Shown one piece after another: positions 12,653-54,020 of a stretch of 64,000 nucleotides of DNA. Below the pieces are notes generated by a model. That model had not been told where the DNA came from. It searched no databases and was given only the letters and a program-made list of their open reading frames with translations. This DNA comes from an uncultured Acidimicrobiaceae bacterium (lineage in GTDB: Bacteria > Actinomycetota > Acidimicrobiia > Acidimicrobiales > RAAP-2): the NCBI GenBank assembly GCA_963718405.1, contig CAVQYZ010000004.1, positions 66,798 to 130,797 of the forward strand. Direction: 5' to 3'. Position 1 is the stretch's first letter. Every line of letters starts with the position of its first letter. The position numbers were made by a program, and so were the translations under genes.

Positions 12653-12705
12653 GTCATGACACTTGGTGTCATGACTACAGTACCAGGAATGTCACCTGGT
12701 GTCAT
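12653..12705. promoter_or_regulatory. two palindromic operator candidates in the SDR/TetR divergent intergenic region
   Basis: 12653-12675 is GTCATGACAC-ttg-GTGTCATGAC (perfect 10-bp arms). 12689-12705 is ATGTCACC-t-GGTGTCAT (one mismatch). Both share the half-site GGTGTCAT. Confidence 0.45.
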
Positions 12706-12727
12706 CACACGCCCGTAGGATCGTGCC

Positions 12728-13318
12728 ATGGTGCGCTGGGAGGCCGGATCGGACGGGAGGCTGGTGCGGGCGGCCTACGAGCTGTTCGCTGAGCGCGGCT
12801 ACGAACAGGTCACCGTGGCCGAGATCGCCGCCCGGGCCGGGCTGACCAAGCGGACGTTCTTCCGGTACTTCCCCGACAAACGTGAGGTGCTGTTCTCGGG
12901 AGCCGCGGAGTTCCAGGCAGGGGTGGTCTCGGCTGTGGCCGGTGCGCCCGCGGGAAGGGCCCCGATCGATGCCGTGGCCGAGGCGCTGGTACTGGCCGGA
13001 GAGAGCCTCGCCGCCCTCGGCGAACCGGCTCGCCAGCGCCAACGTCTCATCGACGGCTCGCCGGACCTGCGGGAGCGCGAGATGATCAAGATGGCCACCC
13101 TCACGGCGGAGATCGGAGCCGCGCTGGAGCAACGGGGGGTTCCGGCCCAGGTGGCCGGCCTCACCGCTCAAGCGGGGATGGCGGTGTTCAAGACGGCCTT
13201 CGAGCGCTGGGCCGGCCTGGACGGCGACGTTGCGTTCTCGCCTCTCTTCCGGCAAGCGCTGGGTGAACTCCGGTCGGCCATTGATCCGGGCCCCGGGGCC
13301 GAACCGGGCCGTGGGTGA
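12728..13318 (+). CDS. TetR/AcrR family transcriptional regulator
   Basis: HTH ERGYEQVTVAEIAARAGLTKRTFFRYFPDKREVL. Intact 196-aa ORF. Confidence 0.85.
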   Translation: MVRWEAGSDGRLVRAAYELFAERGYEQVTVAEIAARAGLTKRTFFRYFPDKREVLFSGAAEFQAGVVSAVAGAPAGRAPIDAVAEALVLAGESLAALGEPARQRQRLIDGSPDLREREMIKMATLTAEIGAALEQRGVPAQVAGLTAQAGMAVFKTAFERWAGLDGDVAFSPLFRQALGELRSAIDPGPGAEPGRG

Positions 13319-13329
13319 AGCGCAGGCCG

Positions 13330-14743
13330 GCGAATTCGGACGCTGGGCAGCACCTGTCCGGCGGGCCTCGGCGAACCGGGCCAGCGCCTCCTGTCGCTCG
13401 GCCGCATGGTCGACCAGGAGGTCGGGGGCGGGGCCCGGGCCTGATCCGCAACACCGTCCGCGGGTCGCGGGCGGGTGGTGGAGATACCGATCGACGTAGG
13501 CGCCCGTCGGGTCGAAGCGCTCCAGTTGACGCGAGGGGTTGAGCACCCGGTGGAACGGGGCGGCGTCGGTCCCCGTGCCCGCCACCCACTGCCAACCGTG
13601 CTGGTTCGAGGCCAGGTCGCCGTCGACCAGGTGCCACATGAACCAGCGGGCCCCGAGCCGCCAGTCGATGTGGAGGTCCTTGACCAGAAAGCTGGCGGTG
13701 ACCATCCGGACCCGATTGTGCATCCAGCCCTCGGCCAGTAGCTGGCGCATCCCGGCATCGACCAGCGGGTAGCCGGTGGTCCCGGTGGCCCACGCCGCGA
13801 ACCGCTCCCGGGCCCGCTCGTCCGTGTCCCAGCGGAGTCGGGCCCCGAACGCCAACAGTGGGGCGCGCGCCGAGTCGGGCCGGTGCCAGAGCACGTCGGC
13901 GTAGAACTCCCGCCAGGCCAGCTCGGTCCGCAGGCGCTCCGCCCCGGCCCCGGTCCCGAGGAACGACAACACGGTGCGCGGATGGATGCAGCCGAAGCGC
14001 AGGTAGGGCGAGAGGCCTGACGTACCGGGAACGGCCGGCAGGTCACGGTCACGGTCGTAGTCGGCGGCCGGCCCCGCCATGAACCGCTCGAACCGGTCCC
14101 ACGCCGCTACCGGCCCGGCACCAGGGAGGGCCGCGGCGGGGCCGAGGGGGAGGCCCTCCCACCAGTCGGGCAGACCGTGCGACCCGGGGGTGGCCACGGC
14201 CGGCTCCACGGCCAGGTCGCCATGGTCGCTTCCGAGGCCCCGCCACCGGACGTCAGGGGGGAGGGACGGGCCCGGCCACCCGACCCCCTTCCAGGCCCGG
14301 TGGTAGGCGGTGAACACTTTGAACGGGGTGCCGGACCCGGAGCGAACCCGGCCCGGGGCCACGGCGTAGTTGGAGTCGACCGTCATCAGCCGGCGGCCGT
14401 CGGCTGCCAGGGCCTGCGCCACGGCGGCATCCCGGGCCCGACCGTGGGGACCGAAGTCGCCGGTGGCGACCACCACGGCCGCCCCGGCCTCGGCGGCCAC
14501 GGCGGGGACCACCGTGGTGGGGTCGCCGCTCCGTACCACCAGGCCCTCCCCCAGCTCATCATCGAGGGCGGCCACCGCCGCGGCCAGAAAGCGCCGCCGG
14601 TTGGGGCCGGCCGGCTCGAGCAGGGCCGGGTCCGCCACGAACAGGGCCACCACGCCGTCGGGCCCGGCTTGGTGGGCGGCCCGTAGGGCGGGCAGGTCGT
14701 CGAGACGCAGATCCCGCCGGAACCACAGGACGGAGCTGGCCAC
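13330..14743 (-). CDS. phr: deoxyribodipyrimidine photolyase (cryptochrome/photolyase family); 3' end unresolved
   Basis: GTG at 14743 followed by ASSVLWFRRDLRLDD. FAD-binding block TSGLSPYLRFGCI, GYPLVDAGMRQL...GWMHNRVRM, DGDLASNQHGWQW. Ends ...LLVDHAAERQEALARFAEAR near 13340. No stop codon follows in any minus frame until 13188 or lower. Confidence 0.8.
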
Positions 14744-16234
14744 GATCAGGGGGACCGGGGGGTGCCGACGGTGCCGGCGGTGCGGCCGGCTGTGCCCCCG
14801 GTCGGGAGCGAAGCCGCACCCGGCGGGCCCGGCCCCGGACCATGACCCCGAACACCACCCGGTGGACGGGCCACAGCGCCCACCAGTAGGCCAGGCCCAC
14901 GAGGCCCTTGGGCCGGAACGCCGCGGCCTGTTCCACGCCGGTGGGGTCTCATCGATCTGGAGGGCCAGCCAGCCGTCCCCGCAGAACCACCCGACCGAGG
15001 CCAGCACCAGGTGGTCGGGATCGACCCGCTCCACCCGCCACCAGTCGGCCAGTGCTCCGGCCGTGAGCCGGTCGGGCCGCCGGGTCGAGAGCTTCTCGCC
15101 GAACAGCCGGCCCAGCGCCACCCGTAGGGCCCAGGCCCAGGCCAGGCCGTACCAGGAGAGGCTGCCGCCCACATGGGCCAGATCGTCCCGGGCCGCCTCG
15201 ATCCGCTCGGGCTCCAGCGGCGCAGCGGAGCGCATGATGTAGACGCCGGTACCGAGGGGCTCGGACCGGTCGAGCAGGCCGGCGGCGACCCGGTCGGCCT
15301 CGTCGCTGATGGCCCGGCGGACCGCTTCGGTGACCGGCAGTGGGGTGATGCCGAAGGCGGCGAAGGTGCGCTCGGGCTCGTGGACCAGCACCTCGCTCAC
15401 CAGGCTCTCGATCAGGGTGTGGCTGACCCGCCGGTCGACCGGACTGACCAGGTCGACCCAGCGGGCCGACAGCGAGGGGGTGACGAAGGGCACGGTGAAG
15501 ACATGCCGGGGCCGTAGTCCCCTCACCTCGGCGTAGCAGCGCATCATGGTCCCGTAGTCGGTCACGTCAGGCGTGCCGATCTCGTAGATGCCCGGCGGGG
15601 CCGCCAGGGCCCCGGCCAGGTAGTCGAGCAGGTCGCACTCGGCCAGCGGTTGGAGCCGGGTGGTGATCCAGCGGGGGCAGACCATGACCGGCAGGCGCTC
15701 GGTGAGCGAGCGCAACATCTCATAGGAGATGCTGCCGGCCCCGAGGATGACCGCGGCGCGCAGCTCGACGACCGGTACGCCGGAGGCGGCCAGCACCGCG
15801 CCCACCTCCTGGCGGCTGACCAGGTGGGGGGAGAGTTCACCCCGGCCCAGGCCGCCCAGGTAGATGATCCGGCCGACCCCGGCCGATTTGGCGGCCCGGC
15901 CGAAGGCTTCGGCCAGTTGGCGGTCGCGGGCTTCGAACCCGGTGCCGCCGGCCAGGGCGTGGACCAGGTAGTAGGCGGCGTCGGCACCGGCCAGGGCCTG
16001 GGCGGTGCTCCCGGGGTCGGCTACGTCGACCGTCATGGGCGTGATCCGCTCACCGGAGGGCAGGGCGTCCGGAGTCCGGCCCAGGGCCGTCACCTGGTGA
16101 CCGGCCCCGGCCAGCCGGTGGGCCAGCAGCCGGCCCACGTAGCCACTGGCGCCGGCGATGACGATCCGGCGGGCCGGGGCGGTGGGGCCCCGATGTCCCG
16201 TTCCTCCCGCCCCGGTGGCCGGCGGGGCGGTCAC
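14744..16234 (-). CDS. NAD(P)H-binding SDR domain + DUF2867 protein; frameshift near 14940
   Basis: The GTG at 16234 overlaps the stop of the upstream SDR gene (GTGA). RRIVIAGASGYVGRLL Rossmann motif. The DUF2867 tail ...WRVERVDPDHLVLAS..GDGWLALQI continues in another frame as AAFRPKGLVGLAYWWALWPVHRVVFGVMVRG. A TGA at 14744-14746 in the third frame abuts the photolyase GTG. Confidence 0.65.
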
Positions 16235-17277
16235 GGCCCGGCTTCCGGCACGGGCGTCCCGGTCCCGGTGCGGGCCGCACACCAGTCGAGGAGGCGTTCC
16301 GGGTCACCGGGACCGCTCGGGTGGGTGACCGGAAAGCGGTGGTCGGAGCGGGGGTGTCGGTCGTGGAAGAAGCCCCTGGTGATCGGCTCGACCCCGGCGG
16401 CCCGCGCCGCCACCGTCGGTCCCCCGGCGGCCAGCCACACCGCGGTGTCCGCCCCTTCGGTGGGCGTGCGCAGCAGCGGGCGCATCAGGGTGCGGAACTT
16501 CGGTAGGCCCTGGGCCAGGCCGGGGGTGTCCACCCAGCCCGGGTGCATGGCGTAGCTGGCCACCGGCACCGGAGCGAAGCGGTCGGCCCAGGCGTCGGCC
16601 AGCACCAGCTGGGCCCGCTTGGCCTTGGCGTAGGCCACCACGCCGTCGTAGCCGTCCGGTCCGGTCTCGAGGGTGCCGAGATCGAAGCGCTGCGAGTACA
16701 TGCCCCCCGAGCTCATGGTGACGATGGTGGGCGGCACGGAACTCCCGTCGGCGCCACCGCCGGCCGAGGAGAAGAGCAGCGGGGCCAGGGCCGCGGTCAG
16801 CAGGTAGGGGCCCAACACCTGGGTGGCCACGGTGCGCTCCACCCCCTCGGCGGTGGTCTGGTACGTCGGGGTCAGCGCGCCGGCGTTGTGCACCAGGGCG
16901 TCGAGGCGGGCCGCACGGTCCCGGATGCTCCTGCCCAAGGCGGCCACGGCGGTGGGATCGGACAGGTCGACCAGGTGGAGTTGGGTCCGGCCCGGACCGG
17001 CGGCGTCCACCGCGGCGACGGCGGCGGCCCCCCGGACCGGGTCCCGGCCCACCAGGTGCACATCGGCACCGAGGCCGGCCAGGGCGGTGGCCGCGGCCAG
17101 GCCGATACCCGAGGTGGCCCCGGTGACCAGGGCCACCCGGCCGTTCATCGGCGGCGGGTCGCCCCACTCCTCCAGCCGGCGACGGAGCTCGATCCCGACC
17201 CGGCTGAAGCTCGGGGCCACCGTCGCTTCGGCCACGGCGTCCGTGGCCCGGGCCAGGGCGTGCCGGGCACGGTCCAT
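16231..17277 (-). CDS. SDR family oxidoreductase
   Basis: ATG at 17277 lies 3 nt after the SRPBCC stop. GRVALVTGATSGIGLA cofactor motif and YAKAKRA (YxxxK). Confidence 0.85.
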   Translation of the reverse strand: MDRARHALARATDAVAEATVAPSFSRVGIELRRRLEEWGDPPPMNGRVALVTGATSGIGLAAATALAGLGADVHLVGRDPVRGAAAVAAVDAAGPGRTQLHLVDLSDPTAVAALGRSIRDRAARLDALVHNAGALTPTYQTTAEGVERTVATQVLGPYLLTAALAPLLFSSAGGGADGSSVPPTIVTMSSGGMYSQRFDLGTLETGPDGYDGVVAYAKAKRAQLVLADAWADRFAPVPVASYAMHPGWVDTPGLAQGLPKFRTLMRPLLRTPTEGADTAVWLAAGGPTVAARAAGVEPITRGFFHDRHPRSDHRFPVTHPSGPGDPERLLDWCAARTGTGTPVPEAGP

Positions 17278-17279
17278 GC

Positions 17280-17714
17280 TCACGCCGCCAGGGCGCGGCG
17301 CAGGCCGGCGGCGGCCCGGTCCCCGATGCGCCGGAACGAGAGGCCGAGAAGCGGCGTGAACAGGACCGCTCCGCCCTTCAGCTCCAAGGTGGCGTGGTAG
17401 GTGAGGATGGAGCCGCCCTGGGGATCGGGAACGACCTCGATCACGTCGGTGGATCGCACCAAGGCGTTCTCCGCCCGGAGCACGACCCGGTGGGGACGCT
17501 CGTACTCCTCGATGCGGTAGTTGAGGGGGATGGACCGACCGTAGTTCCGAACCACCAGCCGATAGGTGGCGCCCAGGCCGGTCGCCCCGGGGTCGTCCTC
17601 GGTGGCCTCGGCCACCCCGGGGTCCCACCGGGCGGCGTTGGAGAAGCGGGCCATGTAGTCGAAGACCTCAGCCGGGGGCCACCGAGAGGTGACGCGTGCA
17701 CGGTAGGTCGCCAT
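17280..17714 (-). CDS. SRPBCC (polyketide cyclase/dehydrase-like) family protein
   Basis: 144-aa ORF with VFDYMARFSNAARWDPGV..YRLVV and a length typical of the family. First gene of the minus-strand operon. Confidence 0.8.
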   Translation of the reverse strand: MATYRARVTSRWPPAEVFDYMARFSNAARWDPGVAEATEDDPGATGLGATYRLVVRNYGRSIPLNYRIEEYERPHRVVLRAENALVRSTDVIEVVPDPQGGSILTYHATLELKGGAVLFTPLLGLSFRRIGDRAAAGLRRALAA

Positions 17715-17722
17715 CCCGGTAG

Positions 17723-17738
17723 TTTAGTACTAAATAAC
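17723..17738. promoter_or_regulatory. AT-rich palindromic motif TTTAGTACTAAATAAC (copy 1)
   Basis: The perfect 12-bp palindrome TTTAGTACTAAA sits in the 82-bp divergent region between the SRPBCC and FAD-oxidoreductase operons. It is very AT-rich against a roughly 70% GC background. Confidence 0.4.
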
Positions 17739-17796
17739 ATCCGGGGCTCGTGCAGTTTCGAATAACGGGTGTCCGACGGCACGAAAGAGACAGCTC

Positions 17797-19047
17797 ATGC
17801 GGATCGCCATCATCGGCAGCGGGGTATCGGGCCTGGTCACGGCCCACCTGCTGCGCGGCCACCACGACATCGTCCTCTACGAGGCCGACGAGCGCCCGGG
17901 AGGCCACTCCCACACCCACCGGATCGAGCTGCCCGAGCTGACCTGCGATGTCGACACCGGGTTCCTGGTCTACAACGAGCGCACCTATCCCTTGTTCTCC
18001 CGCCTGCTCGACGAGCTCGGGGTGGCCTCCAAGCCCAGTGACATGAGTTTCAGCGTGGCCGACCAGCGCACCGGCCTCGAGTGGCGGGGAACGTCGTTCT
18101 CCACCGTCTTCGCCCAGCGGCGCAACCTGGCCCGGCCCGACTTCTTGCGGATGCTGGCCGACGTGGCCCGTTTCAACCGGCTGGCCCGGGGGCTGCTGGC
18201 CGACCCGCCGCCCGACGGCGTGACCCTGGAGGAGGTCCTGGCCCCACACCGCTGGTCGGCCGGCTTCCGCCACTGGTACCTGGTCCCGCTGGGCTCATCG
18301 ATCTGGTCGGCCGACCCCTCGACGTTCACCCAGATTCCCGCCGCCACCTTCGCCCGCTTCTTCGAGCGCCATGGCCTGCTCCGACTGCGCGACCAGCCGA
18401 AGTGGCGGACGGTGGACGGTGGCTCGAAGCGTTACGTCGACGCCATCCTTTCCCCGTTGCGGCAGGAGGGCCGGCTCCGACTGGGGAGCCCGGTGGCCAA
18501 GATCCGCCGCAACCCCGGTGGCGTGGAGGTGGTCAGCGAGGCCGGCGTCGAGACCTACGATCACGTCGTGCTGGCCACCCACAGCGATCAGGCCCTGTCG
18601 CTGCTGTCGGACCCCGACCGGGTGGAGCGCCAAACGCTCAGTGCCTTGCGCTACCAGTCCAACCGGGCCGTCCTGCACACCGACGTCAACCTGCTACCCA
18701 CCGAGCGCCGGGCCTGGGCCAGCTGGAACTACCACCGACTGGAGGCGGAGCGGGACGAGGCCACGCTCACCTACTACCTGAACCGTCTCCAGGGCATCGA
18801 CTCGGCCACCCCCGTACTGGTCACCCTCAACAATGACGCGGCCATCGACCCCGGCAAGGTACTGGGCCACATGGAGTACGCCCACCCGGTGCTGGATCCG
18901 GCTGCGGCACAGGCCAAGACCCACCACGGGGAGATCAACGGCACCCGGCGCACCTGGTTCGTCGGCGCCTACTGGGGCTACGGCTTTCACGAGGACGGGG
19001 TACGTAGTGCGGTGGAGACGTGCCGGGCCATGGGGGTGGTGTGGTGA
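17797..19047 (+). CDS. NAD(P)/FAD-dependent oxidoreductase (amine-oxidase fold)
   Basis: MRIAIIGSGVSGLVTAHLL...YEADERPGGHSHT dinucleotide-binding start. Intact 416-aa ORF. Confidence 0.85.
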   Translation: MRIAIIGSGVSGLVTAHLLRGHHDIVLYEADERPGGHSHTHRIELPELTCDVDTGFLVYNERTYPLFSRLLDELGVASKPSDMSFSVADQRTGLEWRGTSFSTVFAQRRNLARPDFLRMLADVARFNRLARGLLADPPPDGVTLEEVLAPHRWSAGFRHWYLVPLGSSIWSADPSTFTQIPAATFARFFERHGLLRLRDQPKWRTVDGGSKRYVDAILSPLRQEGRLRLGSPVAKIRRNPGGVEVVSEAGVETYDHVVLATHSDQALSLLSDPDRVERQTLSALRYQSNRAVLHTDVNLLPTERRAWASWNYHRLEAERDEATLTYYLNRLQGIDSATPVLVTLNNDAAIDPGKVLGHMEYAHPVLDPAAAQAKTHHGEINGTRRTWFVGAYWGYGFHEDGVRSAVETCRAMGVVW

Positions 19048-19973
19048 GCGCCCCCGGTGTTGCCACCCCACTGGCCCTGTACCCCGTGGAGGATGCGGTC
19101 GGCGGGGTGGAACACGATCGGGCCCCAGCCACCTGGCCCGACCGGGACCCCAACGGCCTGCGCAGCGCGGTGTACGAGGGTGTGCTCCTCCACAAGCGCT
19201 TCGGGCCCGGGCCGAGCCACTCGTTCCGCTACCGGGTGGCCATGCCGTTGCTCGACCTGGCCGAGGTCGATGAGGTGATGGACCTCCACCCGGCCTGGTC
19301 CGCCCGCCGCCCCGCCCCGGTCCGGTTCCGGCGCCAGGATTTCTTCGGTGACCCGGCCACACCCCTCGACCAGGCCGTGCGGGACCTGGTGGCCGAACGT
19401 ACCGGGAGGCGTCCGGTGGGCCCCGTGGCCGTGCTGGCCAACGTGCGCACCTGGGGCTGGTTGTTCAACCCCATCAGCCTGTACTTCTGCGCCGACCCGG
19501 CCGACCCCGGGGGCGGACCGGGACAGGTCGACTCGCTGGTGGCCGAGGTGGAGAACACGCCCTGGCACGAGCGCCACGCCTACGTGGTCGGCCCTCCGGG
19601 GAGGCACCGATTCGCCAAGGAGCTCCATGTGTCGCCCTTTCTCCCGCCGCGCCTCGACTACGAGCTCCGCTACACCGCTCCGGGATCACAGCTCACGGTG
19701 GGCCTCACCGTGCTCGAGGGCGACCGGAGGCTGTTCGACGCCACGCTCCTCCTGCGTCGTCGGGCCCTCGATCGGGCGGCACTGGGCCGCTTGCTGTGGA
19801 ACTATCCGGCCATGACCCACCGCGTCACCGCCGGCATCTATGCCCAAGCCGCCCGCCTCCGGCTGAAGGGCGCTCCGTTCTTCAGCCATCCGACCGACCG
19901 GGGCGCACCGGGGGCCGGCGGAACCACCTGCCCCGCCCCATCCGCGCCGGTACCCATCCGGACCGGGCCATGA
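19044..19973 (+). CDS. DUF1365 domain protein
   Basis: The GTG at 19044 overlaps the upstream stop (GTGA). Family-typical SAVYEGVLLHKRFGPGPSHSFRYRVAMPLLDLAEV and WGWLFNPISLYFC. The exact start is uncertain. Confidence 0.75.
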   Translation: MSAPGVATPLALYPVEDAVGGVEHDRAPATWPDRDPNGLRSAVYEGVLLHKRFGPGPSHSFRYRVAMPLLDLAEVDEVMDLHPAWSARRPAPVRFRRQDFFGDPATPLDQAVRDLVAERTGRRPVGPVAVLANVRTWGWLFNPISLYFCADPADPGGGPGQVDSLVAEVENTPWHERHAYVVGPPGRHRFAKELHVSPFLPPRLDYELRYTAPGSQLTVGLTVLEGDRRLFDATLLLRRRALDRAALGRLLWNYPAMTHRVTAGIYAQAARLRLKGAPFFSHPTDRGAPGAGGTTCPAPSAPVPIRTGP

Positions 19974-21398
19974 CCCGGTCCCATGGTCTGGTGGACAGTG
20001 GCGCCTCGCCGGACGGCCAGGTCGTGGACATCGGGGCGGGAGACCGCTCCCGGGCCAGCCGCCCCGGGGGGGCCGGTGTGGCCTCCAACCGCGCCGACCT
20101 GACGCCGATCCGGTCGGCGCCGGAACAGCCTCCGGCCGAGGTGCGCTTCCGGGCCACCCTGGGCCACGTGGCCCCGCCCGACCGATTCGCCGGCAGCAGC
20201 CTGGCGCGCCGGATCGTGCTGGCGGCGGGACGGTACGCCGGCGGCGGGGCCATCGAGATCACCGAGGGAGACGACACGTTCCGCCTGGGCCGGGGTGAGC
20301 CCCTGGCCCGGGTGACGGTGCACGACCGCCGGGCCTATGGCGCCCTGCTGCGGTCGGCCTCGGTCGGCCTGGGTCGTTCGTATGTGGCCGGATGGTGGGA
20401 TACCGACGACTTGACCGGGCTGGTTCGGGCCCTGGTCCGTGACACCCGCCCGTTACGCGAGCGATTGGATCGGCTGGGGAGGGCCTGGGGCGCCCTGTTG
20501 GACGTCCCGGCCCGCCTGGCCGCCCCGGGTCGGGACGAGGACAAGCGGAACATCGCCGACCACTACGACCTCTCCAACGACTTCTTCGCCCTGATGCTGG
20601 ATGAGACCATGACCTACTCGTGCGCGGTGTTCGACCGGCCCGGGGCCACCCTGGCCGACGCTCAGGAAGCCAAGATGGACCGGCTCTGCGCCAAGCTGGA
20701 GCTGGCCCCCACCGACCACCTGGTCGAGGTGGGCTCGGGCTGGGGTGGCCTGGCGGTCCACGCCGCCGTCAACTTCGGCTGCCGGGTGACCACCACCACC
20801 ATCTCCGAGGCGCAGCGTTCCTACGTGGAGCGGCGGGTGGCCGACGCCGGGCTGTCCGACCGCATCACCGTGCTCGGGCGGGACTGGCGGGATCTCACCG
20901 GACGGTACGACAAGCTGGTCTCGGTGGAGATGATCGAGGCGGTGGACTGGCGATGGCACGACCGGTTCCTGGCCCGGTGCTCCGATCTGCTCGCCGATGA
21001 CGGGCTGGCCGCCATTCAGGCCATCGTCATCGACGACCGCAGCTTCGAACGGGCCAAGCGCCACGATGACTTCGTCCGCCGGATGGTCTTCCCCGGCGGG
21101 TGCCTCCCCTCGGTGGCCTCGCTCACCACCAGCCTGGCCCGGGCTACCGACCTGCGCCTGGTGGACCTGGAGGATGTCGGCCGCCACTACGCCGAGACGC
21201 TGCGGCGTTGGGCGGACAACCTGGACGCGGAACACCGAGGCGGTCACGGCCCTCGGGGTCAGCCCGGAGTTCCGCCGTCTGTGGGACCTGTATCTGGCCT
21301 ACTGCGAGGCGGCGTTCCTCGAACGCCACATCAGCGACGTCCAGCTGGTCCTGGCCAAGCCGGGCCGGGCCGCACGATTGACGACGCGACCCGGATGA
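19970..21398 (+). CDS. cyclopropane-fatty-acyl-phospholipid-synthase-family SAM methyltransferase; frameshift near 21235
   Basis: The ATG at 19970 overlaps the DUF1365 stop (ATGA). HYDLSNDFFALMLDETMTYSCAVF, SAM motif VEVGSGWGGLAV, SVEMIEAV. The C-terminus continues in another frame as EAVTALGVSPEFRRLWDLYLAYCEAAFLERHISDVQLVLAKPG. Confidence 0.8.
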
Positions 21399-21520
21399 GG
21401 ACCTCCCCGCGGCCCGGCCACGCGCTCAGACGGGGTCGGCCCGATGGGACCCGGAGCGCGCAACCCGGTCCCCGCTGACCGACCCGGTAGCCGGACCGCA
21501 GGCCCGACCGGGGCGAGCCG

Positions 21521-22351
21521 TCAACGGCCGGCGGCCAGGCCCTCGATGACCCGGACCAGATCGTCGCCCCGGCGCCCGGTGAAGCCGTCGGCCCCGAGGC
21601 GACGGGCATGGTCGGCGTCGGTGACGGCGGCTCCCCCCAGCAAGACCGTGGTGCCGGGAAGGGCCTCATGCAGATGGGTGACCACCCGGCGGGCCGAGGT
21701 CGTCGAGGCCCGGGTGGTGCAGGCCATGGCCACGGCCAACAGATCAGGCACGCCGGTCAGCGCCTGGGCCAGGGCGTCGGCCGGGGTGTCCGCACCCAGC
21801 TCGATCACGTTGAAGCCGGCCCACCGCAACAGATCGGCGGCGATGGCCACCGGGGCCGAGTGCTGCTCGGACGGCGGCGTGGTGATGACCACGCTGCCGC
21901 GCTTGGGACCGCGGCGGGCGAATCGGGCGCCGAGGCGCGAGATGAGCCGAACGGCCACCGCACTGGCCCGGTGCTCATCGGCCACGGTGAGTTCGCCGGC
22001 GTGCCAGCGCTCCCCGATGGATTCGAGGGCCGGGGCCACCAGCTGCAGGAGGACCTGGGAAGGAGAGTGGTCGGAGGCCAGGGCGGCTTCGAGCACACCC
22101 CAGGCGCCTGGTTCGTCGCCGGCCAGGAGCCGGGCCTCGAGCTGCTTGGCCGTGGCGGCCCGGGCCCCCGGCTTCCGGCCGCGGTGGGGGGAAGCCGGCC
22201 TCATCCGGGCCAGGTCATCGGGGTCGACCTGCCAACCACCGCCGACGCGGGTGGCCGGGAGCTTGCCGGTGCGGACGTAGCGATAGACGGTCATGTAATG
22301 CACGCCCAACGTGTCCGCCGCCTCCTGCAGGGTCAATGGCGCTTTTGGCAT
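21521..22351 (-). CDS. transcriptional regulator: excisionase-type (MerR-superfamily) HTH + cobalamin-binding domain
   Basis: N-terminus LTLQEAADTLGVHYMTVYRYVRTGKLPATRVGGGW (HTH_17 type). C-terminal Rossmann-like B12-binding module VVITTPPSEQHSAPVAIAADLLRWAGFNVIELG...LLAVAMACTT...VLLGGAAV. Confidence 0.75.
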   Translation of the reverse strand: MPKAPLTLQEAADTLGVHYMTVYRYVRTGKLPATRVGGGWQVDPDDLARMRPASPHRGRKPGARAATAKQLEARLLAGDEPGAWGVLEAALASDHSPSQVLLQLVAPALESIGERWHAGELTVADEHRASAVAVRLISRLGARFARRGPKRGSVVITTPPSEQHSAPVAIAADLLRWAGFNVIELGADTPADALAQALTGVPDLLAVAMACTTRASTTSARRVVTHLHEALPGTTVLLGGAAVTDADHARRLGADGFTGRRGDDLVRVIEGLAAGR

Positions 22352-22386
22352 CTGGGCTTTCTCGACTCCGGCTCGCTGTCGGCGAA

Positions 22387-22402
22387 TTTAGCAGTAAATA
22401 CA
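22387..22402. promoter_or_regulatory. AT-rich motif TTTAGCAGTAAATACA (copy 2)
   Basis: Lies in the 117-bp divergent region between the B12-domain regulator and the STAND regulator. Matches copy 1 at 12 of 14 positions (TTTAGnAnTAAATA). Confidence 0.35.
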
Positions 22403-22468
22403 GGGGACAGGGAGACGTGACCCGTCGGCCCGGCACCTGCTCCCCGCGGTCTCCACGGAGTCCGAACC

Positions 22469-25015
22469 ATGGCCGCGGCTACGGTCAAGGAGGTGATCCG
22501 ATTCGCCGACTGCGAGTTGAACCTGGACCGCATCGTCCTGCGACGGGGTGGCGAGGAGATCCGGGTCGAGCCTCAGGTATTCGACGTGCTGGCCTACCTC
22601 GTCCAGCACCGCGGCACGGTGGTGCGCAAGGAGGAACTGCTCGACGCCATCTGGGGCGATCGATTCGTGAGCGAGTCCGCCCTCACCACGCGGATCAAGG
22701 CGGTCCGCCAGGCCGTCGGTGACGACGGCAGCCAGCAGTTGATCATCCGGACGGTGCATGGCAGGGGCTACGAGTTCGTGGCGGCGGTGGAGGAGATGGA
22801 CGAGGGTCGGTCCGACGTGGCCCGGCTGCCCCTGGCCGCGGGAGCTTCCATCGGCGTCCGCCTGCAGCCGTTGATCGGTCGCGAGACGTTGCTGGAGCAG
22901 CTGGGCGAGATGATCGTCGACCACCGGCTGGTCACGTTGATCGGTCCGGGGGGCGTGGGGAAGACCTCGCTGGCCATGGAGCTGGCCCGCACGGTCGGTG
23001 GCCACTTCGAGGACGGTGTCCACGTGGTGGAGTTGGTGGGCGTCATCGATCCGGACGCCACCGCCGCCGCTCTGGCCACGGCCGTCGACGTCAACCTGCG
23101 GAGGTCGAGCTCCATCGACGATGCCATCGTCGATCTGCTGCGCTCCCGGCACACACTGTTGGTGCTGGACAATTGCGAGCACCTCATCGAGCCGGTGGCC
23201 GAGCTGGTGGCGCGCCTCCTCCGCGACGCCCCGGCCATCTCGATCGTGGCCACCAGCCGCGAGCCCCTGGCGGTGGCCGGTGAGCGCCTCTGGACCGTGG
23301 ACCCCCTGCCCACCGGGCCCGAGGATCTGTCGGCGTCCGATGCCGGGCTCGGCCAGCTGGCCGACATTCCGGCCGTGGCCCTCTTCGTGGCCCGGGCCAA
23401 GGCCGCCGATCCCTCCTTCGCCCTCGACGAGGCCACCGGTCCCCTGGTGGCCGAGATCTGCCGGCGCCTCGACGGGATCCCCCTGGCCATCGAGCTGGCG
23501 GCAGCCCGGGCCCGGGCCATCGGCGTGGTCGAAGTGGCCCAGCGGCTGGACCAGCGCTTCGGGGTGCTCAAAGCCATGCGGAGAGGGAGCGATCCGCGCC
23601 ACCGGACCATGCACGACGCCATCAGCTGGTCGTACGACATGCTCGAACCTGACGAGCGGGACCTGTTCACCTCGCTGTCGGTGCTGGCCGGATCGTTCGA
23701 TCTCCACTCGGCCGAAGCCATGGCGCCAGGGGTCGACACGCTCGACGTGTTGACCCGACTCACCGAGCGCTCCATGCTGGCCGTGCGTCCCCAGGCCGGG
23801 GGTTCGACCCGCTACGAGCTGCTCGAGACGCTCCGCGAGTACGGGCGGGCCCGCCTGAGTGACGCCCAGTCCGCCGAGCTGTTCGCCACCCACGCCCGGC
23901 ATTTCGCGGCCGAGGCCGAAGCAGTGGAGGCGGAGCTGGGTGGTCCCGGTGAAGGTGATGCCAGCACCTGGGCAGGATCCTCGCTGGCCGACCTTCGGGC
24001 CGCCCAGCGCTTCGCCCTCGAGCTCGGGGCCTTCGACATCACCTTCGGTCTCATCGGCTCGATCCGTGAGTTCGCCATGCGGGCCATGCGCTACGAGGTC
24101 TTCACCTGGGCCGACGCCGCCTGCCAGGCGCCGGGGGCGCTGGACCACCCCCTGGCCCCCCTGCTGACCGGGATCCGGGCCTACGGCGCCTGGGTACGCG
24201 GCGAATTCGATCTGGCGGTAAAGCTGGCGGAGGAGACCCGCCACCTCGAGGACCGGCTGTCGGTCTTTCCCAGTGGCCTGGCTGAGCGGACCTTGGCCAA
24301 CGTGCTGTACCTGGAGGGCGACCCGACGAGGGGCCACGCCGAGGCCCTCCGCCAGATCGAGCTGGCCGAGGAGTCGGGGAACCGGTCGCGGCTGGTCCAC
24401 GCCTGCTACCTGGGGGCGGTGGGCCACAGCTCCAACGACGCCTACGACGAGGCCGAATCCCTCATCGAACGGGCCCACCGGGCGGCCAAGCTGACGGCAT
24501 CGCCGACCGACCTGGCCTCGGTGGCGGTGGCCCGCGGGTTTGCCAGCAGAACCGAGGACGAGGCCCTGGAGGCCTTCACCGCCAGTGCCCGCATAGCCCG
24601 TGCCGCCGGGAACCGCTGGATGCACGGGTTCGCCTTCACCGAGGCCAGTGGGCTGCTGGTCTCCCGGGGCCAGCTCGAGGTGGGGTGCGCCGGTCTGGCC
24701 GACATGGTCGGAGTCTGGGACCGCGCCGGGGACTGGTCCCAGCAGTGGCACACCTTGTCGCGCTGTGCCATCGCCCTGGATCAGATGGGCCAGGACGAGC
24801 TGGCCATCGAACTGCTCGGAGCCATCGAGAGGCACGCCATGCTGGGTGTGGCACCGATGTCGAGCACCCTGCACGACCTGGCCTTTGCCACCAGGGACCG
24901 GCTGGTGGACACCCTGGGGGCGGAGCGGGCGGGCGAACTGCTGGCCGCCGGCGCCATCTGCCCGGTCGAAGACATCGTGTTGCGGACCCGCCGGGCGCTC
25001 ATCGGGGCCGGCTGA
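22469..25015 (+). CDS. AfsR/SARP-like STAND regulator (OmpR-type winged helix + NB-ARC P-loop NTPase + TPR-like C-terminus)
   Basis: N-terminus FADCELNLDRIVLRRGGEEIRVEPQVFDVLAYLV...IRTVHGRGYEF. Walker A GPGGVGKTSLA and Walker B LLVLDNCEH. Long helical-repeat tail. Intact 848-aa ORF. Confidence 0.8.
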   Translation: MAAATVKEVIRFADCELNLDRIVLRRGGEEIRVEPQVFDVLAYLVQHRGTVVRKEELLDAIWGDRFVSESALTTRIKAVRQAVGDDGSQQLIIRTVHGRGYEFVAAVEEMDEGRSDVARLPLAAGASIGVRLQPLIGRETLLEQLGEMIVDHRLVTLIGPGGVGKTSLAMELARTVGGHFEDGVHVVELVGVIDPDATAAALATAVDVNLRRSSSIDDAIVDLLRSRHTLLVLDNCEHLIEPVAELVARLLRDAPAISIVATSREPLAVAGERLWTVDPLPTGPEDLSASDAGLGQLADIPAVALFVARAKAADPSFALDEATGPLVAEICRRLDGIPLAIELAAARARAIGVVEVAQRLDQRFGVLKAMRRGSDPRHRTMHDAISWSYDMLEPDERDLFTSLSVLAGSFDLHSAEAMAPGVDTLDVLTRLTERSMLAVRPQAGGSTRYELLETLREYGRARLSDAQSAELFATHARHFAAEAEAVEAELGGPGEGDASTWAGSSLADLRAAQRFALELGAFDITFGLIGSIREFAMRAMRYEVFTWADAACQAPGALDHPLAPLLTGIRAYGAWVRGEFDLAVKLAEETRHLEDRLSVFPSGLAERTLANVLYLEGDPTRGHAEALRQIELAEESGNRSRLVHACYLGAVGHSSNDAYDEAESLIERAHRAAKLTASPTDLASVAVARGFASRTEDEALEAFTASARIARAAGNRWMHGFAFTEASGLLVSRGQLEVGCAGLADMVGVWDRAGDWSQQWHTLSRCAIALDQMGQDELAIELLGAIERHAMLGVAPMSSTLHDLAFATRDRLVDTLGAERAGELLAAGAICPVEDIVLRTRRALIGAG

Positions 25016-49736: not shown

Positions 49737-51252
49737 TCACGTCGTTGCGAGAACTCGTTCCCGCCACCGTCGAAGGCTCATAACATCAAACCGCTCTCCC
49801 TCGAACGCAATAGACTTCACCGGCCACTCCCCTTGAGATCGACGCTGACGCAGCAGATCCCGAACCTCCATCCACTCAATGGACCCGGAGGAATCTCGGA
49901 TGACCAGCATGACAGGATATGCCTGATCTGCCCAGTAGTCTCCATGCCGAGATTACTGATTCGAAGAAGTTCGAAGGTCCTGGTCTTTCGAGATTTAAGG
50001 TGTGAGCGCCGGACTTAATTGAAGGTACAGCCTCTCTCCTGTGGCTTGTCCCGCATCATTTTTGAACTTATCTTCCATATCGATCCCCCAGTCGCTTACC
50101 GTTACCTCCTTGCTAGCTGATTCGCTCGGGCAGCAACCGCAACAACCTCGCCCACGAGTATGCGCTCTTTGCTCTCCGTATCTAGAACCACCTGCGCCGC
50201 TTCGCGGAGGGCCTCGACCTGGGCTCTGAGTTCTGGACTGGCGAGTTGATCCTCTATCTCATCCCAAAGTGGGAATTCGATGGTCGCAGAGACCACATCC
50301 AATGTCCTGCTTGCCGTCCAGAAGTCTTCTGAGAGCAATCTCACGATTTTCGTTTGGCGTACCACATTTGCTGCAATATCGTGCCGTAATCGCGCCCACA
50401 TTATCCGCATATTTAAGTAAATGGGTATACACGTATCGTGCAAATAAAACGCAGTCACCAATTGATGTATTGAGATCGCTATATATCTCAAGGGATCCAG
50501 TTCCATCCGACTTATGTGTGAGCCTGAGCCCGACACCAGAACCAGTTGCTGTGACAAAATCGGCAGCATTTCGCCAGATACCCTTACTGCTAAAGGGTTC
50601 CGTGTAGTGGAGTCTAGCAACGAGTGTGGCGTAGATCTCTTCAAGGGGCCCCGAAAATCGGTAGCTCACGAAATAGGCTGGCTCTCCGTTCGATCGGGCC
50701 GCTCTCTCCGAAAGTAGCTGGGGAAGACCAACAGCGTCGATCGCTTTCCATTGGGGTCCTGGTCCCTAAAGCAAATAGGGTACTCTACCAGCTGCTTATG
50801 CAAACCCAGGAGAATGATCCGCTCGTCGTCCTCTTCGACTCGTTGAAAGTCGGGTGGAAAGTTGAAACCCCCGTAAGCACCCGCTCCTCTGTAATCGAAC
50901 CCCGCTCCTTGGATCATCGTGCAAGCTTCTAATAACGGCTTGTGCATCCGAGCGCTTGAGAAGATCGGCCTTGAGCAGAATATATCCACCGAAGTCAAGA
51001 GGTAAGACAGCCCGCCGGGCCAGACAATCGAACGACCGCATCGAGTTGAGCCGGTTCGAAGGGTCCAGTAATACCAGGTAACCAATCGCCAAGCTCTTTG
51101 ACAGACGTAAGTAATCGACCGCTGTCTTTCAGCTTCATTATTTCAGCCCTGAGACGCTTGAATATCTCCGGTGTAGTGCGCCATGGGATGGCACTCCAAT
51201 CGATAGTCTCGGCAATAGCAGCTCGAAGTTCAGAACATCCGTCGGAATACAT
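49737..51252 (-). pseudogene. remnant of a large STAND/ROCO-type gene: COR-like region + Zn-ribbon + DUF4365 (PD-(D/E)xK-like) C-terminal domain
   Basis: Pieces in at least 5 frames: AIAETIDWSAIPW..FKRLRAEIMKLK; ILLGLHKQLVEYPICF..STLLVFPSYFRRERPD; SYRFSGPLEEIYATLVARLHY..GIWRNAADF; CSKCG...CGLCDHRIP; DWGIDMEDKFKNDAGQATGERLYLQL; DYWADQAYPVMLVIRDSSGSIEWMEVRDLL...IAFEGERFD, ending at the TGA at 49737. Confidence 0.5.
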
Positions 51253-51415
51253 TTACCAGCGAATAGGTGAAGTAGTCCCGGCTAGTGACAAATCTGAGTT
51301 GAATAGATTGACTTGATGCAGCGCTCAAAAGAATGACCGGGCGAATGTTCGACATTACGGATCGTCCGACGAGTTTTGTCTTGCACACGAAGAGCGATCC
51401 CGGCTTGCTTCACGT

Positions 51416-52799
51416 TTGATCGAACTAGAGAACCTCGATACGCGCCTGCATGACGAACTATTACAAGTCATCTCAGAGTCCGCTTCTGCACTTGAGATCG
51501 AACTTCCTTTCAATGTCCTCGAAATGACGTCGAGAGTGCGGCGACTGGTCGAAAAAGTGTTACTCGAACGTGGCGAATCCTTTGTCGCAGCGGTTCAGTC
51601 GGGGTCGCTTGCCCTTTGCAATCAGGATGAATTGCGTGAACTGGTTGTGGACGATCTTGGAAATCATGGAGGCATCACCGGGAACCAGGCCGACTATGTA
51701 ATCCTCGTTCTTACCGCACTCCAGAATGTCCTTCTTCACCCGACCGAGGAAGTCTCAAATATCTGGAGAAGCCTCTCCAACTCATACACTCTCTTCTCAC
51801 TGGTGCGCGCTACCCCAAATGTTCAGAAGGCACTTGTGAAGATTTACTCAGGTGGAGAAATATGGCTTGACACCTCGGCGGTCCTTCCATTGTTTGGTGA
51901 GCGCTTGGTGCCAGTGGAAGAACGACGATTCTCCACAATTGTTCTGGCCGCGCAATCAGCTGGAGTGACATTTCATGTCACTCCAGGTGTCACTGAGGAG
52001 TTGGAGCGCCACATAAATCGGTGTTTGATATTTCGGTCGATACCTAGATGGGAAGGGCAGGTTCCGTTTTTGTATACCGAGTTCATCAAGAACGGCGGAC
52101 GACCTGTCGGTTTGCCGGGTGGATAAGAAATGCCGCGGTGCAATCCGACCGGTCGATGACTTGCAGAGTATTTGGCCGATGAACTCCGCATTACGGAGAT
52201 ATCGCTCGCTGATGATGCTAACAGTGCCACCGACGACTTGAGATTCGCGGTGAAAGAAATGTGGACCGAAGTTCAAGATCAAAGAAGATCACGATCCCAC
52301 GGCGGAATCGATCCGGTGGTTGCACTGAGACTTGCCGAACACGACACTGAGAACTACGTGGGCGTGCTCGCAGAGACGTAGACAACGACGAGATGGGCCA
52401 TTCGAATACGACAAGTTCGTGGCTCATATTGATCGTAAAGCCTTCGGAATGCACCGGAAGCTGGCAGATCACTTGGGCTGCCCACCTATCGCATCACCTG
52501 TATTAAGTCCAGATTTCCTTGCTAACTATCTAGCGATAGGTCCCATAAGGGAACACATTGATAAGGGCATCGAGGCAACATTGCCACTCATGGTTGATGT
52601 TGGCCTGCTTGATGCCGTTCCCGAGGAAGTTCTAAGTGCGGCCGAAACTGCTCGCAGCGAGTTCGATGGCTTGGCACCGAGAGTCTTGAGGCGGCGCATC
52701 CGAGATCGCATTGATCTCGACAAACAAATGCTTGCCTCAGGTGCATCTTCGGAAAATGATGATGGATCAGGAGACGAAGAGTTGATAGCAGCGACCTAG
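51416..52799 (+). pseudogene. hypothetical protein with a PIN-like core; 5' end unclear, at least 3 frame or stop disruptions
   Basis: GEIWLDTSAVLPLF...VTFHVTPGVTEELERH (PIN-like acidic motif). TAA at 52124 and TGA about 30 nt later. Continues as LAEYLADELRITEISL...HDTENYVGVLAE, then frame-shifts to PFEYDKFVAHIDRKAFGMHRKL... Confidence 0.45.
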
Positions 52800-52900
52800 A
52801 GGATCCGGCGGCATCCTTTGGACTCAGCTTTGCACGCCCGAGTACGAATGTCAAGGGAGTCTCAAGGTCCCCCGTCCGGGTGAGCGGAAGACGACGGAGT

Positions 52901-53658
52901 TCAGAGGCGGAAGTCGCTCTTCTTCAGGACCGATATTCGGGATTCGAGAAATCGAATCGTCGTCCCGGCATCCCATTCTCGGCGCTGATTTCCGTAAGCA
53001 GGAAAGCCGCCAGCAGCCTTGAGCATGCCGGCGAGATGGAGGAGATTCCAAGTCATGAAGGTGGTATTGCGATTGGTGAATTCGTTCTCCACTCCCACCC
53101 GACTGCCATCCTCAAGTTCGTCCCCGTAGCTAGGACCTGGTCCGGCCTCTCCGATCCATCCGGCGTCTGACTGGGGTGCGATCGAGTACCGATGTGCTGA
53201 AGGCTGTAGAGAACATTCGAAGCGCAGTGCTTGATACCGTCCTCGTTTCCCGTAATCAGGCATCCTCCGACTTTGCCGTAGTAGAGCCATTGGCCCTTGT
53301 CGTTGAGCTCACCGGAGTGGGCATAGAGCCGTTCGATCACCTTCTTGGTCTCGCTGCTGTTGTCGCCAAGCCAAATCGGGCCGCCGATGACGAGGATGTC
53401 CGCGGACATCACCCTTCCGAAGAGCTGAGGCCATTCGTCCTTCGCCCAACCGTGTTCACACATATCGGGATACACGCCTGTGGCGATGGCGTGGTCGACG
53501 GAGCGGAATTGGTCGACCGTACACCTTGCTTGGCCATGATTGCTGCGCTGACGTCAATCAGGCGCTGCGTGTGGCTCAGCTCCGGCGACCGTGTCAGTGT
53601 CGTGTTGATGAATAGCGCTGCGAGGCTCGAAAAATCTGTGTGGCCAGTCGGTGTCCAT
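52901..53658 (-). pseudogene. flavodoxin-like-fold NAD(P)H-dependent FMN reductase, two frame breaks
   Basis: ALFINTTLTRSPELSHTQRLI / ADILVIGGPIWLGDNSSETKKVIERLY...GKVGGCLITGNEDG / PQSDAGWIGEAGPGPSYGDE...NTTFMTWNLLHLAGMLK, in three frames. Confidence 0.6.
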
Positions 53659-54020
53659 GGAAATGCAGTCCTCCGATCACTGTTGGTGTTACAGAGCATT
53701 GCCGATTGAGTGCCCCCAGGTGTTGATGCTGGCACCAGCCCCCCCGCATAGAGACGCCAGTTGTGTGTAGGAATAAACGCTGCGCATTGACCGTCGTGGG
53801 CGTAGGTCGTGAGCCGGGTTAGCTGAGGACCCTTGTTTCCCTGCAGATCAATTGTCCGGGCAGTCGCCGTGTACCGCGTACCCATCGAAATGGCGGCGTA
53901 GAGACTGAGGATGGACGTGCCCGAACGTTGATGCTCAGACTCGCTCTGGCCTAGGGCTGATCCAAACCCAAGCGCTTCGCTAGTGTTGACAAACGGAAAG
54001 GCGACTAGGAGGAATCGGCA

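Follow-up and report, generated by a model that had tools for sequence, protein, structure and literature searches.

The window analysed in this study, a 64,000-nucleotide (64-kb) stretch of contig CAVQYZ010000004.1 from an uncultured Acidimicrobiaceae bacterium, contains a gene cluster organised around a gene for a regulator with a vitamin B12-binding module (Table 1). Two divergent sets of genes, separated by a gap of 82 nucleotides (nt), lie to the left of the regulator gene. The leftward set encodes an SRPBCC protein, a short-chain dehydrogenase (SDR), of which the gene begins 2 nt past the SRPBCC stop codon, and a long open reading frame (ORF) comprising an NAD(P)-binding/DUF2867 part and a DNA photolyase. 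The rightward set encodes an FAD-dependent oxidoreductase, a DUF1365 protein and a methyltransferase resembling cyclopropane-fatty-acyl-phospholipid (CFA) synthase, of which the true start is probably located downstream of the listed ORF start. On its other side, the regulator gene is divergent from a gene for a protein with an OmpR-type winged helix and a STAND NTPase domain. The gap between the two gene sets and the region upstream of the regulator gene each carry a short AT-rich palindrome, designated here as O1 and O2, respectively. These two palindromes, and their relationship to the regulator, are the subject of this study.

Table 1. Positions of the palindromic sites, predicted promoter elements and genes. 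Coordinates are those of the window, except for the last row, in which they are those of the loci named.
Feature	Position	Strand	Remarks
Operator O1 (predicted)	17721..17736	.	AGTTTAGTACTAAATA; holds the perfect 12-bp palindrome TTTAGTACTAAA; divergent SRPBCC/FAD-oxidoreductase gap
Operator O2 (predicted)	22385..22400	.	AATTTAGCAGTAAATA; upstream of the regulator gene
Predicted -10 hexamer TAAACT, leftward SRPBCC operon	17721..17726	-	Read from the sequence; followed by ACCGGG (6 nt) and ATG 17714
Predicted extended -10 element of the regulator's own promoter, inside O2	22385..22393	-	TGCTAAATT; read from the sequence
Regulator gene (276 aa)	21521..22351	-	N-terminal HTH_17, then B12-binding_2 and B12-binding (Pfam, NCBIfam)
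SRPBCC (Polyketide_cyc2), leftward operon, gene 1	17280..17714	-	Pfam E 1e-16, residues 1-142 of 144
Short-chain dehydrogenase (adh_short), leftward operon, gene 2	16231..17277	-	Pfam E 1.2e-24, in the frame of ORF 16231-17628
ORF with NAD(P)-binding/DUF2867 (38-447) and DNA photolyase (517-~985), leftward cistrons 3 and 4	12692..16282	-	Pfam, NCBIfam
FAD-dependent amine-oxidase-like oxidoreductase (UfaD-like), rightward operon, gene 1	17797..19047	+	Pfam, conserved synteny
DUF1365 protein (UfaO-like), rightward operon	19020..19973	+	Pfam E 6e-63
CFA-synthase-like methyltransferase	19796..21478	+	Pfam CMAS E 1.5e-72, residues 247-479
OmpR-type winged helix and STAND NTPase, divergent from the regulator gene	22469..25015	+	Pfam; neighbour only
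Dyads before sigma factor genes in distant relatives	L039 2874/2908; L044 6901/6935; L074 4526/4556; L031 2252/2278; L056 4986; L076 2605

The palindromic sites in the window and in related loci

O1 and O2 contain two 14-mers, TTTAGTACTAAATA at 17723-17736 (copy 1) and TTTAGCAGTAAATA at 22387-22400 (copy 2), which are identical at 12 of the 14 positions. Copy 1 is separated by 8 nt from the start codon of the divergent SRPBCC gene (17714) and by 59 nt from the ATG of the FAD-oxidoreductase gene (17797), and copy 2 by 67 nt from the ATG of the STAND gene (22469) and by 36 nt from that of the regulator gene (22351). The first-pass annotation, which was made from the sequence alone, had given the coordinates of both copies, the 12-bp palindrome in copy 1, the match at 12 of 14 positions and the distances of 59, 67 and 36 nt, and all of these were confirmed on the sequence. 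It had also regarded an AT-rich 14-mer as conspicuous at this place, and had seen no further copy in the high-GC half of the window. Our searches agree on both points. The local GC content around the sites is 0.70-0.735, and copies 1 and 2 were the sole pattern matches in the 64 kb when a single mismatch at most was allowed, as against an average of 0.00 in 100 dinucleotide-preserving shuffles. Tolerating up to three mismatches added only weak matches, all within a low-GC stretch at 50-54 kb. With a 16-nt weight matrix trained on orthologous sites from the related loci described below (maximum 33.3 bits), the two sites scored 30.0 bits (at 17721) and 28.6 bits (at 22385), and the runner-up in the window scored 11.8 bits. 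An Rfam scan of the whole window detected no RNA family, cobalamin riboswitch included, and the motif is thus not part of any known riboswitch.

The runner-up is a small hairpin-like sequence (ACCCTTTAGCAGTAAGGGT, 50579-50597), and is the only other weak motif-like match. The stretch from 50000 to 54000 has a GC content of 0.51-0.56, compared with 0.63-0.73 on either side, and its ORFs are all short. None of eight ORFs from this stretch, possibly an acquired island, had an above-threshold Pfam match. Apart from O1, the gap between the SRPBCC and FAD-oxidoreductase genes carries a ~35-nt block on the forward strand (~17762-17796; AACGGGTGTCCGACGGCACGAAAGAG...), which abuts the FAD-oxidoreductase start and is near-invariant in close relatives (L001-L017); the remainder of the gap, between this block and the dyad, is variable among the same relatives. 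The block may be an element of the 5' untranslated region (UTR), a second binding site or the real promoter.

Regulator homologues with the same three domains are numerous, chiefly in Acidimicrobiales metagenome-assembled genomes. Using two peptides of the DNA-binding domain, GVHYMT[VAI]Y and YVRTG[RK]LPA, which were chosen from an alignment of 17 homologues, we retrieved 80 loci from species-representative genomes, each covering ~12 kb around the regulator gene (883,513 bp in total). The gene order was widely kept: the regulator gene is accompanied by genes for the CFA-synthase-like protein, DUF1365 protein and FAD-oxidoreductase on the opposite strand, and then by those for the SRPBCC, SDR and NAD-binding/DUF2867 proteins. 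The core TTTA[CG]NNNTAA occurred at 114 distinct places in these loci, versus a mean of 2.65 in composition-preserving shuffles, and none of the 114 copies was located inside a mapped gene. Fifty of them were upstream of the regulator gene, 30 in the FAD-oxidoreductase/SRPBCC gap, 15 upstream of the same genes otherwise arranged and 19 elsewhere. Counted by locus, 59 of 79 had a site no more than 260 nt upstream of the regulator gene, and a further ten had it at another place, e.g., at the head of an operon ending in the regulator gene. The gap site was present in the related loci with the FAD-oxidoreductase/SRPBCC gene pair, and its 12-mer core mostly starts 20 nt before the SRPBCC start codon. 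The part of the first-pass interpretation that stands is therefore a common operator joining autoregulation of the B12-binding regulator to the effector operons.

Since the search pattern had fixed both half-sites, we repeated the examination in a pattern-free manner. The commonest 7-mers in 78 regulator-upstream regions were all fragments of the motif (TTTAGTG in 26 regions and TGCTAAA in 21), and the top 7-mers in a control region 1 kb further upstream were GC-rich. When we anchored on the generic extended -10 element TGnTAnnnT alone, the preceding five nucleotides were TTTA[C/G] in 86-97% of cases; the left half-site is thus conserved past what a promoter needs. At the positions that the pattern had left free, the centre is always a pyrimidine followed by a purine (Y-R), C takes position 8 in 81% of the sites, and A/T occupies the flanks. 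Written symmetrically, the consensus is wATTTAG-YR-CTAAATw, and the flanks outside the 14-16 bp palindrome are without conservation. The motif is real, non-random and conserved, and is limited to the promoter regions of the regulator gene and of the light-protection genes.

The first-pass annotation had also placed copy 2 upstream of the divergent STAND regulator gene, and a link of the motif to that gene is not supported by the comparison. No STAND gene was found beside the regulator gene in any of the 80 loci, in which the divergent neighbour varies and can be a secreted protein resembling fibronectin-type-III repeats (by eye), a metallo-beta-lactamase-like protein, lysyl-tRNA synthetase or others. 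As it is not conserved at this place, the STAND gene was rejected as a member of the regulon. The half-site facing it is TAAATA without TG, similar to the antisense halves in genomes without a STAND gene, and co-regulation of the STAND gene in this particular genome is possible but unsupported.

The 19 sites by unmapped genes precede genes for extracytoplasmic function (ECF) sigma factors, sigma-70 family proteins, heliorhodopsin or fasciclin-domain proteins, hemerythrin-like proteins and SDRs, and this target set fits a light or photo-oxidative regulon. ECF sigma factor genes with an adjoining gene for an RskA-like anti-sigma factor are often preceded by two dyads, 26-34 bp apart. Among the paired sites and those of the L056/L076 type, the target is either such an ECF sigma factor gene (with the RskA-like neighbour) or a longer gene of the sigma-70 family. 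These dyad-headed sigma factor genes of distant relatives recall the LitR-LitS cascade of Streptomyces. Two dyads are also found 18 bp apart before the hemerythrin-like gene in relatives (L047 and L055), and 51-52 bp apart upstream of the regulator gene in L036, L038 and L049. Such spacing hints at oligomers that could bridge two sites.

In L042, a palindrome (5299) lies between divergent genes for a heliorhodopsin (Pfam E 3e-94) and a fasciclin-domain protein, and those in L051 (5925) and L152 (8058) adjoin fasciclin genes. The arrangement suggests that some actinobacteria may control the expression of heliorhodopsin through B12 and light.

Some gene models in and around the cluster need to be read with care. 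The ORF at 12692-16282 (1196 aa) has a junction (~455-510) and a 200-aa tail that are rich in Arg, Gly, Pro and Trp and resemble out-of-frame read-through. Separate genes encode the NAD(P)-binding/DUF2867 protein and the photolyase in L029 and L015. The fusion may be genuine, or indels in a long-read assembly may have removed stop codons. In L008, L009 and L010, tblastn matches to single genes were broken into neighbouring pieces of differing frames, which suggests indel errors in these assemblies; the window may be affected likewise. ORF lists can be misleading in DNA of 73% GC. We rejected a 287-aa ORF at 16304-17167 (minus strand) as a spurious, Arg/Gly/Pro-rich frame, which overlaps the real adh_short gene (16231-17277) on the same strand. 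The conclusion on synteny is unaffected by the use of this wrong-frame ORF as a marker, because the underlying DNA is identical.

Predicted promoter elements inside the dyad

The dyad overlaps -10-like elements that are strand-specific. On the SRPBCC-sense strand, TAnnnT was found in 33 of 35 related sites, most commonly in the form TAAACT, and the spacing between this hexamer and the SRPBCC start codon was 6 nt in 22 of the 35. The position of the SRPBCC start codon (ATG or GTG) is conserved in the related loci, and no Shine-Dalgarno sequence precedes it. The geometry would thus be that of a leaderless promoter, with a predicted transcription start. Leaderless promoters are common in Actinobacteria. 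On the regulator side, the predicted extended -10 element would give a 5' UTR of ~27 nt with a GGAG/GAGAAAG Shine-Dalgarno region, and TG at -15/-14 was found on the regulator-sense strand in 45 of 57 sites versus 9 on the antisense strand (35 versus 13 for TAnnnT). In distant relatives, the half facing the FAD-oxidoreductase gene is in many cases a good extended -10 element as well (TG in 18 of 40 sites and TAnnnT in 21 of 40). With TAnnnT or TGnTAnnnT embedded in this strand-specific manner, the dyad is predicted to overlap the -10 element of a housekeeping-type promoter. A symmetric core combined with strand-specific -10 signals is as expected for a repressor site that occludes the -10 element.

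The same signals could in principle mean that the motif is a mere strong promoter core, i.e., an AT-rich extended -10 element read by the housekeeping sigma factor and shared through similar expression needs, with no repressor involved. The coding-sense TAnnnT in both window sites and in most orthologous sites, often with TG at -15/-14, agrees with this idea, as does the SRPBCC start-codon spacing, which matches a leaderless promoter. Nevertheless, a half-site that is unneeded as a -10 element is equally conserved, as seen in the TTTA[C/G] before TGnTAnnnT; across the 883 kb of loci, 45 of 76 occurrences of TGnTAnnnT carry the TTTA[CG] extension. The antisense half of the regulator sites also retains TTTA, though it lacks the T at position 6 of the hexamer and a conserved facing gene. 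Furthermore, 64 kb of DNA must contain many promoters, yet just two sites in the window exceed 12 bits. We thus consider a promoter core without a repressor rather improbable.

A promoter element of an alternative (ECF/stress) sigma factor had been proposed by the first-pass annotation beside the common operator. In its favour, the furan fatty acid genes of Rhodobacter sphaeroides, RSP1091 (UfaD), RSP1090 (UfaO, DUF1365), RSP1089 and RSP1087, are under the sigma factor that responds to singlet oxygen (PMC7380195), and this proteobacterial sigmaE with its anti-sigma factor ChrR drives the same effector genes as those found here (PMC7380195). The SigmaE-ChrR regulon (RSP1091-1087 and phrA) shares UfaD, UfaO, CFA-synthase-like and SDR proteins with the cluster in the window, with photolyase alongside. 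An ECF sigma factor gene also belongs to the cluster in some relatives. However, SigmaE-ChrR is a sigma/anti-sigma pair answering singlet oxygen, whereas the window carries a predicted repressor of the B12 photoreceptor type with a palindromic operator. The motif is a single A/T dyad of 14-16 bp without separate -35 and -10 boxes ~16-17 bp apart; it is too short to hold both, and the embedded TAnnnT and TGnTAnnnT are ordinary -10 elements. In the relatives concerned, it is the ECF sigma factor gene that has the dyad upstream of it, frequently as two copies (L039, L044 and L074), and thus this gene is a target rather than the reader of the motif. In addition, the genes annotated in the cluster of the window (12.7-25 kb) include none for a sigma factor. 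An alternative sigma factor is, all in all, a very unlikely reader of the motif.

The B12-binding regulator

The C-terminal part of the regulator is a cobalamin-binding module, in which Pfam detected B12-binding_2 (PF02607, E 1.1e-14) and B12-binding (PF02310, E 5.7e-12), corresponding to a four-helix bundle and a Rossmann domain. A phmmer comparison aligned residues 72-258 with CarH of Thermus thermophilus (TtCarH; 5C8A/5C8D, E 4.5e-15 to 7e-15). The CarH-type B12 signature residues are present: W116, E126-H127 and H164 align with W131, E141-H142 and H177 of TtCarH, i.e., the Wx9EH motif and the lower axial His, and the four residues are invariant among the 17 aligned homologues. W131, E141, H142 and H177 are named as residues of TtCarH that bind adenosylcobalamin (AdoCbl) (PMC11796333). 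Among solved structures, the B12 modules closest in sequence are those of photocobilins (8J2W/8J2X/8J2Y; E 1e-18 for 8J2X), which carry biliverdin-binding or GGDEF output domains and do not bind DNA.

The N-terminal DNA-binding domain (~50 aa) is of a different kind. It was assigned to HTH_17 by Pfam, not to MerR or MerR_1, and to the excisionase family TIGR01764 by NCBIfam, and residues 1-70 had no phmmer alignment to the CarH chains. The curated CarH model NF052513 (NCBIfam) scored the protein at 79.1 bits (cut-off, 400) and matched residues 67-255 only. In the AlphaFold model, residues 1-62 (mean pLDDT 81) form a helix-turn-helix with a beta wing, of which the top structural matches were mycobacteriophage Pukovnik Xis (4J2N), the DNA-binding domain of RacA (5I44) and BldC (6AMA), with MerR-family domains next. 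The TM-scores were 0.64-0.71 over 47-57 columns at an identity of 28-35%, and the E-values (0.005-0.02) are weak because the domain is short. As judged from the model, a MerR-like winged helix is shared at the level of the fold, and the domain is related to MerR at the superfamily level only.

The excisionase-type domain raises the possibility that the motif serves a mobile element as a recombination or excisionase site; alternatively, two AT-rich stretches may resemble each other by chance. The matches to TIGR01764 and to phage Xis structures are in line with the former. Xis recombination sites, however, come with an adjacent integrase gene, att sites and a stand-alone protein, whereas the annotated cluster genes (12.7-25 kb) include no integrase gene, and in 120 of the 120 best homologues the domain and the B12 module form one protein. 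Pukovnik Xis, the RacA domain and BldC, albeit the best matches in fold, are likewise stand-alone or otherwise fused proteins without a cofactor sensor. As for chance, the shuffles yielded no match, and the site and the synteny are conserved in dozens of genomes. Both variants are exceedingly improbable.

The regulator resembles CarH and class I LitR proteins of Thermus thermophilus, Myxococcus xanthus, Bacillus megaterium and Streptomyces in its combination of a winged helix and a B12 module with Wx9EH and the axial His. In all of these cases the gene lies beside light-protection genes, the operator overlaps a promoter (predicted for the regulator studied here) and autoregulation is likely. 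The differences are equally clear. The DNA-binding domain belongs to the HTH_17/TIGR01764 excisionase type instead of MerR, and the predicted targets are genes for photolyase and fatty acid modification, not carotenoid genes. The CarH operator consists of three or four tandem 11-bp direct repeats, nAnnTnnACAn (PMC8156234), whereas the operator predicted here is one palindrome of 14-16 bp; the CarH repeat A..T..ACA was found on neither strand of 17690-17810 or 22340-22480, where the best triple-repeat score was 10 of 15. Since the MerR-family domain, the score of the curated model and the direct-repeat operator all fail, the regulator was not filed as a CarH equivalog.

The repeats known as binding sites in the LitR family do not occur near either palindrome of the window. 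LitR proteins of classes I-V have a conserved MerR helix-turn-helix and recognise TGTACA-like sites, arranged as tandem nAnnTnnACAn or as TGTACA-N12-TGTACA (PMC8156234; PMC9758184). Class II members, PplR1 of Pseudomonas putida and PmlR2 of P. mendocina, repress a light regulon including photolyase and the furan fatty acid gene ufaM from promoter-overlapping sites (PMC9758184). They are without the full B12 module, sense light through a LOV partner and bind T(G/A)TACA-N12-TGTA(C/T)A (PMC9758184). The latter sequence is unrelated to TTTAGYRCTAAA, and the class II helix-turn-helix is of the MerR type.

A predicted light-operated switch

We consider it likely that the adjacent CarH/LitR-like B12 photoreceptor has the motif as its operator, and that it would bind through its excisionase/BldC-type winged helix to a site overlapping the -10 element that it controls. 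Four points are inferred in silico: binding of the dyad by the regulator, the direction of its effect on transcription, the involvement of AdoCbl and light, and the positions of the transcription starts. The palindrome is most likely the switch by which light turns on the regulator and the light-protection genes. In darkness, a dimer or higher oligomer of the AdoCbl-loaded regulator would occupy the dyad and exclude RNA polymerase from the -10 element. At O2, this would cover the extended -10 element of the regulator's own promoter, resulting in negative autoregulation. At O1, the -10 hexamer of the leaderless SRPBCC-SDR-NmrA/DUF2867-photolyase operon would be covered, and the other half of the site probably lies over the start region of the divergent operon for the FAD-oxidoreductase, DUF1365 and CFA-synthase-like proteins. 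Service of O1 to the leftward operon is a predicted addition to the first-pass annotation. Light would photolyse AdoCbl, the oligomer would dissociate or leave the DNA, and all three units could then be transcribed, so that photolyase and the lipid-modifying genes would be expressed along with fresh regulator after the release. CarH/LitR repressors have operators that overlap -35 or -10 elements and are released by light (PMC8156234; PMC9758184). The content of the regulon, namely photolyase and the UfaD, UfaO and CFA-synthase-like genes, is in line with a light response.

If the dyad is a genuine binding site, it may still belong to another, unlinked factor, or the B12-binding regulator may act as a light-dependent activator in the style of MerR. 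The DNA-binding domain is MerR-like in fold, and MerR proteins can activate; the binding of the regulator to the dyad is a prediction, and ten loci have the regulator gene without the site. Against an unlinked factor, 69 of 79 loci, from several actinobacterial orders, have the site together with the regulator gene. Activation of the MerR type needs a dyad in a -35/-10 spacer of 19-20 bp, whereas the dyad here covers the -10 element itself, and no -35/-10 pair was found by an E. coli-type promoter scan. Moreover, every characterised CarH/LitR protein that carries this B12 module is a repressor (PMC8156234; PMC9758184). Another factor or an activator is therefore unlikely.

Several observations weigh against the operator being that of the B12-binding regulator. 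The ten loci mentioned above remained siteless even at a threshold of 7 bits, although their regulators have the same recognition-helix signature. Because the loci were retrieved with peptides of the DNA-binding domain, all of the regulators have a single recognition helix in common, so that any covariation of the protein with its site would not show in this set. A motif-first scan of metagenomes with ATTTAGTGCTAAAT was not decisive: 114 of the 120 matches listed were on contigs of no more than 54% GC, which we took as chance since these contigs are AT-rich, and, among the matches listed, only two of the six on high-GC contigs adjoined the regulator gene or a known regulon gene. One of them (L187) is 128 nt from a regulator gene and the other (L152) lies beside fasciclin and ECF sigma factor genes; the other four are unrelated or unclear. 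In the window and its close relatives, the half facing the FAD-oxidoreductase gene is TAAATA without TG, a poor -10 element, and the promoter of that operon cannot be placed for this reason. Finally, the E. coli-type promoter scan called nothing in either site region, and a terminator scan of the same type was likewise empty. Actinobacterial -35 elements are poorly conserved, and the empty promoter scan is therefore expected and uninformative.

Three of the siteless loci (L057, L058 and L062) have another upstream sequence in common, CCAGAATTT(T/C)CTTGCTCCGTTCGG...CTTCTACGTTACG, and may constitute a sub-branch under another mode of control.

Fusions of light-responsive cobalamin-binding domains to helix-turn-helix domains have already been noted by database mining (PMC11796333). 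We found no description of the operator in the searchable literature, including that on fusions of HTH_17-type helix-turn-helix and cobalamin-binding domains, albeit an earlier description may exist elsewhere; a text search for TTTAGTGCTAAA and its variants returned primers and unrelated matches only. A broader proposal, to which we give about even chances, is that the regulator represents a widespread and undescribed class of cobalamin photoreceptors, in which a minimal Xis/BldC-like winged helix replaces the MerR domain of CarH. This class would be centred on Acidimicrobiia and would also occur in genomes labelled as Mycobacterium and Streptosporangiales. Its 16-bp palindrome would encode -10 elements, with one palindrome holding two back-to-back divergent ones, and its regulon would extend past DNA repair and genes resembling those for furan fatty acids to sigma factors and heliorhodopsin.

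What is known of B12-dependent light sensing is mostly CarH, with its large direct-repeat operator. If the proposal is true, nature has arrived at a second solution, in which another DNA-binding domain acts on an operator of 16 bp lying within the promoter, and the B12 sensor module would be portable between DNA-binding scaffolds. The conserved arrangement of TAAACT, 6 nt and ATG would then be a clean example of a predicted repressor site fused to a leaderless promoter, and the pair of regulator and palindrome would make a very small operator/repressor system for green-light control in high-GC hosts. For the abundant and mostly uncultured Acidimicrobiia of soil and freshwater, it would define a concrete regulon, comprising photolyase, lipid protection resembling that by furan fatty acids, sigma factors and possibly heliorhodopsin.

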